Shown in pieces: positions 21,294 to 21,486 of a stretch of 64,000 nucleotides of DNA. Every line of letters starts with the position of its first letter. Position 1 is the stretch's first letter. This DNA comes from Nitrosarchaeum sp. GTDB taxonomy: Archaea > Thermoproteota > Nitrososphaeria > Nitrososphaerales > Nitrosopumilaceae. The notes beneath the pieces are model-generated. The model had not been told where the DNA came from. It searched no databases and saw only the letters and a list, made by a program, of their open reading frames with translations. A program made the position numbers and the translations under genes. Location of the stretch: positions 832,001 through 896,000 of the forward strand of contig OZ245020.1 in NCBI GenBank assembly GCA_965223865.1, given 5' to 3'.

Positions 21294-21363
21294 CTCAAAA
21301 TAGATCTGCATGGTTATCACACAATCACAAAAAGGTTTTAGGTAAAATCTGTAGTAGATACTC

Positions 21364-21448
21364 GTTGGCGTTGTCAAGTTAGGAATGACGAAGGTCTGAA
21401 AAACCTTTCTGGTACCATGGATCGTGGGTTCAAGTCCCACCGCCAACG
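21364..21448 (+). tRNA. Atypical tRNA: GAA (Phe) anticodon on a serine-type body
   Basis: GTTGGCG/CGCCAAC, GTCA/TGAC D-stem, AAGGT-CTGAAAA-ACCTT, 16-nt variable region, GTGGG-TTCAAGT-CCCAC, G73. Confidence 0.85.
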
Positions 21449-21486
21449 GGTTTCTAAATTCTATAGGAAGATATTATTATTAAAAC

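Follow-up and report, generated by a model that had tools for sequence, protein, structure and literature searches.

A conserved family of class-II tRNAs with a GAA anticodon in mobile DNA of Nitrosopumilaceae, possible acceptors of serine

What does a tRNA do when its body and its anticodon point to different amino acids? Natural tRNAs of this kind are rare, and have been described in yeasts, nematodes, humans and some bacteria. The question was raised by a tRNA gene found in a 64,000-nt stretch of Nitrosarchaeum sp. DNA (hereafter the window, C1:832001-896000), which belongs to a genome of 2.01 Mb in 4 contigs, with 34% GC and an estimated completeness of 99.98%. The gene has a GAA anticodon, together with a long variable region, A37 and G73. 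We examined whether it is a genuine gene, how widely it occurs, which amino acid its product is predicted to accept, and in what kind of DNA it is found. Genomes and loci are designated below by G and L numbers, the host genome being G000.

The tRNA gene and its relatives

ARAGORN predicted three tRNAs in the window, among which a tRNA(gaa) at 21363-21449 (+) and a tRNA(gat) at 23314-23406 (-). The Rfam tRNA model RF00005 (gathering score 29) matched 21364-21448 over its full length, with a score of 54.1 bits and an E-value of 7.6e-9 for the window, and a relaxed-threshold Rfam scan of 20900-23500 returned nothing beyond the tRNAs. This is thus a real tRNA gene. Its acceptor (7 bp), D (4 bp), anticodon (5 bp) and T (5 bp) stems comprise 21 pairs, all of them standard in the sequence and in its alignment to the model, so that the four fully paired stems described in an earlier note on this DNA are borne out. 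The 16-nt variable region, A37 and G73 are likewise read directly in the sequence, as the same note had reported: the anticodon loop is CTGAAAA, and G73 is followed by GGTTT. The D loop is 9 nt long (AGTTAGGAA), with an A at position 20. The variable stem TCTG/TGGA, also proposed earlier, stood only in part: this pairing is possible, but half of it (two pairs of four) is G.U, and no stable hairpin resulted when the 16-nt region was folded alone (MFE 0).

Features of the locus are listed in Table 1.

Table 1. Features around the class-II tRNA(GAA) gene, with positions in the window
Feature	Position	Strand	Remarks
Class-II tRNA gene, anticodon GAA, A37, G73, 16-nt variable region	21364-21448	+	ARAGORN, Rfam RF00005, 33-member alignment
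Leader ATACTC	21358-21363	+	Pairable with G73-G75 and the T run, which would extend the acceptor helix
Trailer GGTTTC	21449-21454	+	GG past the discriminator invariant in the subfamily alignment
Conserved upstream block	21247-21363	+	Near-identical in the window and three loci of the same-genus genome G030
Upstream hairpin GAACG-CAAC-CGTTC, loop CAAC	21274-21287	+	77-90 nt before the tRNA
71-aa cysteine-rich (zinc-ribbon-like) ORF	21487-21702	-	Converges on the tRNA 3' end; recurrent partner
255-aa protein, coiled-coil-like N-terminus	22487-23254	+	Recurrent neighbour
Class-II tRNA, anticodon GAU, A37, G73, 7-bp variable stem	23316-23406	-	ARAGORN; Rfam 52.5 bits
92-aa VirB6/TrbL-like conjugation membrane protein remnant	23445-23723	-	Clusters with 455-621-aa proteins near the tRNA at five other loci
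78-aa VirB4/TraG-like conjugation ATPase remnant	23898-24134	-	Clusters with L095 3805-5748

The host genome contains 45 tRNAs predicted by ARAGORN (42 Rfam matches), and none of the others is more than 68% identical to tRNA(GAA). Its canonical tRNA-Phe is a class-I tRNA of 75 nt with loop CTGAAGA (G37) and A73, from which A37 and G73 do deviate, in agreement with the earlier note. All four tRNA-Ser of the host have G73 and every tRNA-Leu has A73. Since the canonical tRNA-Phe and all four tRNA-Ser are present, tRNA(GAA) is an extra gene. Reassignment of UUY codons was considered and rejected on gene content: the canonical tRNA-Phe is there, and most genomes of the genus lack the additional one.

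A BLAST search with the 85-nt gene gave matches in 24 of 201 genomes. True relatives were found by it only in G176, G038 and G030 (two copies; same genus as the window), all remaining matches being due to T-arm similarity to tRNA-Pro, tRNA-Ala and tRNA-Leu. Because BLAST was swamped by such matches, spacing patterns were used. A pattern in which the GAA loop, the spacing of a class-II tRNA and the T loop were fixed, run on 401 Nitrosopumilaceae genomes, was matched in 58 of them, belonging to 12 of 27 genera (against 2 matches for the pattern in reverse). Inspection of matched strings and parses rejected 18 of the 58 genomes, as coding look-alikes or one intron-bearing tRNA-Ser. The class-II tRNA(GAA) family is therefore present in about 40 of the 401 genomes, or about 38 of 399 without the unpublished G205 and G257, and reaches 3-5 copies per genome in G193, G242, G297, G211 and G030. 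A stricter pattern, to which the trailer GGGTT was added, was run on one genome per species for 185,579 species. It found 28 loci, 25 of them named Nitrosopumilaceae, Thaumarchaeota or Nitrososphaerota and 1 from an unclassified archaeon; the other two were a genuine look-alike at a contig start in a Micrarchaeaceae MAG and a chance match in Achromobacter. A phylum-wide pattern scan (24 of 121 genomes) returned mostly canonical tRNA-Phe with 37/38 introns and was not used for distribution. As judged from these sequence searches, the family is specific to Nitrosopumilaceae, patchy and often multi-copy.

An alignment of homologs had been suggested earlier as a check for covariation. In such an alignment (A2), which comprised 33 distinct sequences from the subfamily of the window copy together with 8-nt flanks, 16 of the 21 cloverleaf pairs have changed on both sides, and helices are 93-98% paired. 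When pair partners were slid, pairing fell from 93.7% to 38-49%, and none of 500 shuffles reached the values observed for the whole 27-pair structure. With its fold preserved by compensatory changes in 33 relatives, the feature is not put down to chance, and the gene looks functional. Of the anticodon loops, 32 read CTGAAAA and one CTGAAGA, so that A37 is found in 32 of 33. All 33 have G73 (A73 is absent) and the GG trailer, G73-G74 being invariant, and none has G20, position 20 being T, A or C. G1:C72 is found in 32 members and G30:C40 in 23, the window copy carrying both, and 24 of 33 have a 9-nt D loop, as host tRNA-Ser do. The variable region of the relatives is 13-22 nt long and makes a hairpin of 3-7 bp, with at least 3 bp when taken alone in 30 of 33; the arm of the window copy is the weakest of the 33. 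Identity between family members and the tRNAs of their host does not exceed 72%. Other class-II lineages also join GAA and G73, and some of their bodies are 67-75% identical to tRNA-Ser.

When the anticodon was left free in the subfamily search, in 5 genomes, all 12 matches carried GAA. Because of this, and because the loop is fixed amid variable stems, the sequences indicate that the GAA anticodon is under selection, which argues for a decoding role or for recognition by a synthetase.

A second odd tRNA, with anticodon GAU, lies about 2 kb from tRNA(GAA), between the 255-aa gene and the VirB6 remnant. Its loop is CTGATAA, and its D loop and T arm are Leu-like; the canonical intron-bearing tRNA-Ile(GAU) is present elsewhere in the host genome. 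A scan for CTGATAA matched 35 of 151 genomes, 32 of which corresponded to canonical intron-bearing tRNA-Ile (including the unpublished G077, G092 and G093). True class-II GAU genes are rare, with 3 genomes out of 151 (G000, G039 and G043). In L059, the slot of the window's tRNA(GAU) is taken by a GAA copy. G030 has two further GAU versions, both in L146: a subfamily copy with loop CTGATAA at about 5163-5225 (+), truncated in the variable arm, and a full class-II tRNA with loop CCGATAC (GAU, C33) at 9428-9515 (-), whose acceptor stem is that of the L059 GAA copy. In G193, a class-II tRNA with anticodon GAG, whose CCA is encoded and whose discriminator is G73, was observed (L097, 7197-7288, +), 2.2 kb from a class-II tRNA(GAA).

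Leader, trailer and upstream block

The earlier note had pointed out that the CTC...GGG flanks can extend the acceptor helix. In the window, -1:73, -2:74, -3:75 and -4:76 are all pairable, that is four consecutive pairs, and five of the first six. This capacity proved common to the whole family: -1:73 is pairable in 31 of 33 members, -2:74 in 32 of 33, and -3:75 in 29 of 32. Leader positions -4 to -6 are mostly A, and pairing with the T run is possible in 21-25 of 33. Variation between leader and trailer is one-sided, with C or U facing a fixed G, and a single double change among the 33 (L029, U:A); leader-trailer pairing is therefore consistent with the data but not proven. Among the 41 other tRNA matches of the genome, none has GG at 74-75, and one has more than three consecutive leader-trailer pairs, as compared with four for tRNA(GAA). 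This other tRNA, outside the window (C1 2114-2219, +), is intron-bearing and can form 7 consecutive pairs beyond its acceptor stem.

Upstream of the gene, about 115 nt are near-identical across four loci, whose tRNAs nonetheless diverge in D arm, anticodon stem and variable arm. The hairpin that had been noticed upstream of the tRNA was found again, inside this conserved block. An A/T-rich, promoter-like stretch is present at about -35 to -17, and the T run of the trailer is likely an archaeal terminator. Because the promoter-like stretch lies some 20-35 nt upstream and the T run just downstream, the primary transcript may extend hardly beyond the tRNA, its ends closed into a helix of about 13 bp.

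An extended acceptor helix recalls tRNA-Sec and allo-tRNAs, folds that had been put forward for this gene and that did not hold. The T stem is 5 bp long and covarying, so that the fold is not 8/4, 9/3 or 9/4. tRNA-Sec is alike in its long variable arm, its G discriminator and, possibly, an eighth acceptor pair (-1:73, 31 of 33), but has a UCA anticodon, never found in the family, a 13-bp acceptor/T helix (9/4 or 8/5) and a D stem of 6-7 bp, whereas tRNA(GAA) has GAA, a 5-bp T stem and a 4-bp D stem. Moreover, SepSecS had no match in the host genome (99.98% complete). Allo-tRNAs, in the excerpts of PMC5389517 available to us, are long-arm, serine-accepting tRNAs with non-serine anticodons, patchily distributed near transposon or toxin-antitoxin genes, and some of them are inactive, all of which is reminiscent of the present family. 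They are however bacterial, with 8/4 or 9/3 acceptor/T helices (12 bp), whereas in the tRNA(GAA) family these helices are 7/5 and both covary. An identity as tRNA-Sec or allo-tRNA was thus ruled out.

Amino-acid identity

In the passages of PMC9976931 that we could consult, serine identity depends on long-arm size and G73, independently of the anticodon, with G30:C40 as a weaker element in archaea and G1:C72 for some enzymes. Phenylalanine identity depends on G34, A35, A36 and A73, the latter being described as strictly conserved, plus G20 in yeast and A. pernix, and G73 is an antideterminant for the LeuRS of H. volcanii (same passages). The long arm, G73, G30:C40 and G1:C72 of the serine set are all present in tRNA(GAA). 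The serine anticodon (NGA or GCU) is absent, and in terms of decoding this GAA tRNA does not count as a tRNA-Ser isoacceptor. Like canonical archaeal tRNA-Phe, it has G34, A35 and A36, with C32 and U33; it differs from it by its class-II body in place of a 4-5-nt variable loop, by A37 instead of G37 (the wyosine site), by G73 instead of A73, and by the lack of G20. Compared with archaeal tRNA-Leu, it lacks both A73 and the enlarged D loop, the D loop of host tRNA-Leu having 12 nt (AGCCTGGTCAAA) versus 9. Breitschopf and Gross are said to have found in 1994 that changing A73 to G alone makes human tRNA-Leu a serine acceptor in vitro.

Since the long arm and G73 are present, and A73 and G20 missing, published identity rules predict charging with serine, in which case tRNA(GAA) would be a mobile Phe-to-Ser missense tRNA. 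We hold this reading tentatively, and rate it a little short of even. The host genome encodes one standard SerRS with an arm-binding N-terminal domain and one PheRS alpha, and no dedicated or synthetase-like gene was found beside tRNA(GAA) at any of the copies examined. The gene would be transcribed from its own A/T-rich promoter into a short precursor with paired leader and trailer, which would be trimmed to the 7-bp acceptor stem before CCA addition. The single SerRS would read the long arm and G73, ignore the anticodon and serylate this tRNA, while PheRS, if it requires A73 and G20 besides GAA, would charge it poorly or never. On the ribosome, it would then rival canonical tRNA-Phe at UUU and UUC, with low-rate insertion of serine, and the neighbouring GAU copy would have the same effect at isoleucine codons.

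Several points go against serine charging. The conserved GAA is most simply explained by recognition by PheRS, because SerRS ignores the anticodon. Serine at frequent phenylalanine codons should be harmful, and a compensating benefit is hypothetical. By crude global identity, the body is nearest to host tRNA-Leu (0.68), with 0.63 for tRNA-Ser. The identity rules that predict serine come from other archaea, bacteria and eukaryotes, none from Nitrosopumilaceae. Finally, paired leader and trailer might hinder normal processing.

The main rival reading, which we find doubtful, is that PheRS charges this tRNA through GAA despite G73 and the long arm. The genes would then be element-borne accessory tRNA-Phe, with the GAU copies serving for isoleucine, that supply A/T-rich genes or evade tRNA-targeting nucleases. 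The invariance of GAA (32 of 33 loops and 12 of 12 unrestricted matches) and the location of the genes in mobile DNA both speak for this, and accessory tRNAs borne by phages are well known. GAU, the other anticodon seen, counts in the same direction, since IleRS relies on the anticodon, and UUU and AUU are expected to be among the commonest codons at 34% GC. In all domains, the anticodon is the chief phenylalanine determinant according to the available passages of PMC9976931, but in the same source A73 is strictly conserved and G20 is used in A. pernix, and both are absent from all 33 members. Such a role also leaves unexplained why the long arm and G73 recur together in several lineages, a combination that elsewhere yields serine charging.

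Charging with serine, which we favour, would have known counterparts. In the portions of PMC11415595 at hand, yeast tRNA-Ser(CAG) and a human tRNA-Ser(AAA) variant place serine at foreign codons because SerRS ignores the anticodon, the human one being a Phe-to-Ser case; both are recent anticodon mutants of resident genes, whereas the tRNA(GAA) family is mobile and old enough to covary in every stem. The nev-tRNAs of nematodes, as far as the accessible descriptions go, are also class-II tRNAs with conserved anticodons of class-I amino acids (Gly CCC, Ile UAU) that coexist with canonical tRNAs, and they are charged, as predicted or shown, by the synthetase that recognises a long arm. The nev-tRNAs belong to eukaryotic chromosomes and accept leucine, whereas the present family is archaeal, has G73 and GAA or GAU, and is found in mobile DNA. 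In the accessible full texts (main text) on long-arm tRNAs, Thaumarchaeota/Nitrosopumilus, archaeal mistranslation, allo-tRNAs and integrated elements, we found no description of a class-II tRNA(GAA) family.

Mobile context and significance

The 15.5-30 kb stretch of the window is non-syntenic in the same-genus genomes G003 and G054, and in G030 it is split over two regions. One of these, at 953-977 kb, keeps the order tRNA, small ORF, 255-aa gene, and onward to a 657-aa gene, and holds about 17 kb extra. This extra DNA includes an intact VirB6/TrbL-like protein and an intact VirB4/TraG-like ATPase (L148 3340-5280), homologs of which are reduced to remnants in the window. One member of the VirB6/TrbL cluster matches Pfam TrbL (E 4e-7), and L095 3805-5748 matches the HerA/AAA_10/TraG P-loop. 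Over about 60 loci, recurrent neighbours of the tRNA include VirB6-like (6), VirB4-like (5) and archaeal integrase (3) genes, and a Guanylate_cyc-domain protein lies 110-210 nt from the tRNA in 5 of the 7 loci holding that family. Homologs of the 71-aa ORF occupy the same position in L058, L066 and L113, which makes 4 loci in two genera overall; all 137 homologs are without a protein name, and their named sources are Nitrosopumilaceae only. Homologs of the 255-aa protein are found beside class-II tRNA(GAA) in G030 (L058 12650-13363 and L059 9100-9879). Save for one TrbL match, the 255-aa, 71-aa, 657-aa and roughly 600-aa recurrent neighbours matched no Pfam, NCBIfam or PHROG family. One IMG/VR contig bears a class-II tRNA(GAA) copy. 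Going by gene content, class-II tRNA(GAA) genes are located in variable islands of integrative-conjugative and other mobile elements, and the window's own element has decayed to fragments.

Further features were observed in the window and at other loci. In the window, a 253-aa ORF at 28749-29510 (-) corresponds to the N-terminal half only of an archaeal XerA-type tyrosine recombinase (positions 2-152 of 263 of NCBIfam NF040815, and 3-62 of Pfam Phage_integrase), and resembles the integrase of an integrated element, either split or truncated. Paralogs of the 71-aa ORF at 30277-30483 (-) and about 32713-32843 (+) are near it, with no tRNA remnant adjoining. A perfect 49-nt tandem duplication at 24296-24393 (+) is found just upstream of, and overlapping, the start of a plastocyanin-like gene (24381-25253). 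In G290, two tRNA copies that differ by one D-loop base (L061 9943-10033, +; L062 9936-10026, -) are face-to-face at a distance of about 37 kb, with an integrase gene or fragment at each 3' end. In L078, L080, L090, L093 and L099, the cyclase-domain protein (adenylate/guanylate, about 470 aa, 110-210 nt from the tRNA) has an AsnC-type regulator, an HTH protein and a nucleotidyltransferase nearby; we took these as Nitrosotalea-type loci, whose setting may be a defence island.

Such surroundings raise the possibility, which we judge quite unlikely, of a tRNA-shaped element with no part in translation, either an integration target or portable attachment site, or an RNA left unprocessed with its extended acceptor helix closed. 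The genes do lie at borders of element-like DNA, with conjugation genes adjoining the tRNA in L058, L059 and L103 and, in L061 and L063, an integrase at 0.8-2.3 kb from its 3' end. Truncated copies exist (L067, L146), several copies are 200-450 nt from contig ends, and the leader-trailer helix is conserved. Thaumarchaeal elements often integrate into the 3' parts of tRNA genes, as stated in the part of PMC6563490 that was accessible. However, no direct repeat of either tRNA end, as expected of attachment sites, was found in the window or in G030 943.5-980 kb, the upstream block and downstream ORF travel with the tRNA, and same-genus genomes without the island have no tRNA(GAA) gene, hence no resident target. 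An attachment site, moreover, needs neither a covarying cloverleaf nor a fixed anticodon loop. Because attachment repeats were not found and the gene is missing where the island is, we take tRNA(GAA) to be cargo that mobile elements carry, and not a resident target for their integration.

Since its variable stem is the weakest of the 33 and the element around it is decayed, the window copy may be losing function. That it is already a decaying pseudogene of the family seems highly unlikely: the adjoining conjugation genes, intact in G030, are indeed down to fragments of 78-92 aa, but the 21 pairs of the cloverleaf are without exception standard, and loop, G73, GG trailer and upstream block are intact.

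Introns with a bulge-helix-bulge (BHB) motif occur in several host tRNAs, an indication of the archaeal origin of the genome. In tRNA-Val(CAC) (C1 1080626-1080716, -), a 16-nt BHB intron is located in the variable loop, after gene position 45, an arrangement also seen in L114. A tRNA(CAU) in the window (34792-34906, -; Rfam 48.3 bits), which ARAGORN detects only when introns are allowed, has a non-canonical intron of about 40 nt. In spite of these odd introns, it is scarcely credible that the long variable region of tRNA(GAA) is a non-canonical intron whose splicing leaves an ordinary class-I tRNA, as a scan for a strict BHB motif with a 4-bp central helix recovered the 16-nt tRNA-Val(CAC) and 12-nt tRNA-Ile(GAU) introns and found, in the variable regions of the GAA and GAU tRNAs, no motif leaving a tRNA once removed, as the same region in relatives is a 3-7-bp hairpin of 13-22 nt, and as excision would still leave G73 and A37.

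Class-II GAA genes are labelled tRNA-Phe from the anticodon alone, so that the finding bears on annotation. They form a whole conserved family, in abundant and ecologically important archaea, that moves with mobile DNA. If these tRNAs are charged by PheRS, then phenylalanine identity tolerates a class-II body and G73, and the question becomes why elements need such a tRNA. If they are serylated, ambiguity of the code can be transferred horizontally. A bolder proposal, which we consider unlikely, is that mobile elements of these ammonia-oxidising archaea spread a dedicated set of serine-accepting tRNAs for hydrophobic NUY codons (GAA, the rarer GAU and perhaps GAG) and so deliberately make the code of their host ambiguous, the paired leader and trailer gating maturation. 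If true, Archaea would have a first natural mistranslation system, and conjugative elements would for the first time be carriers of one.
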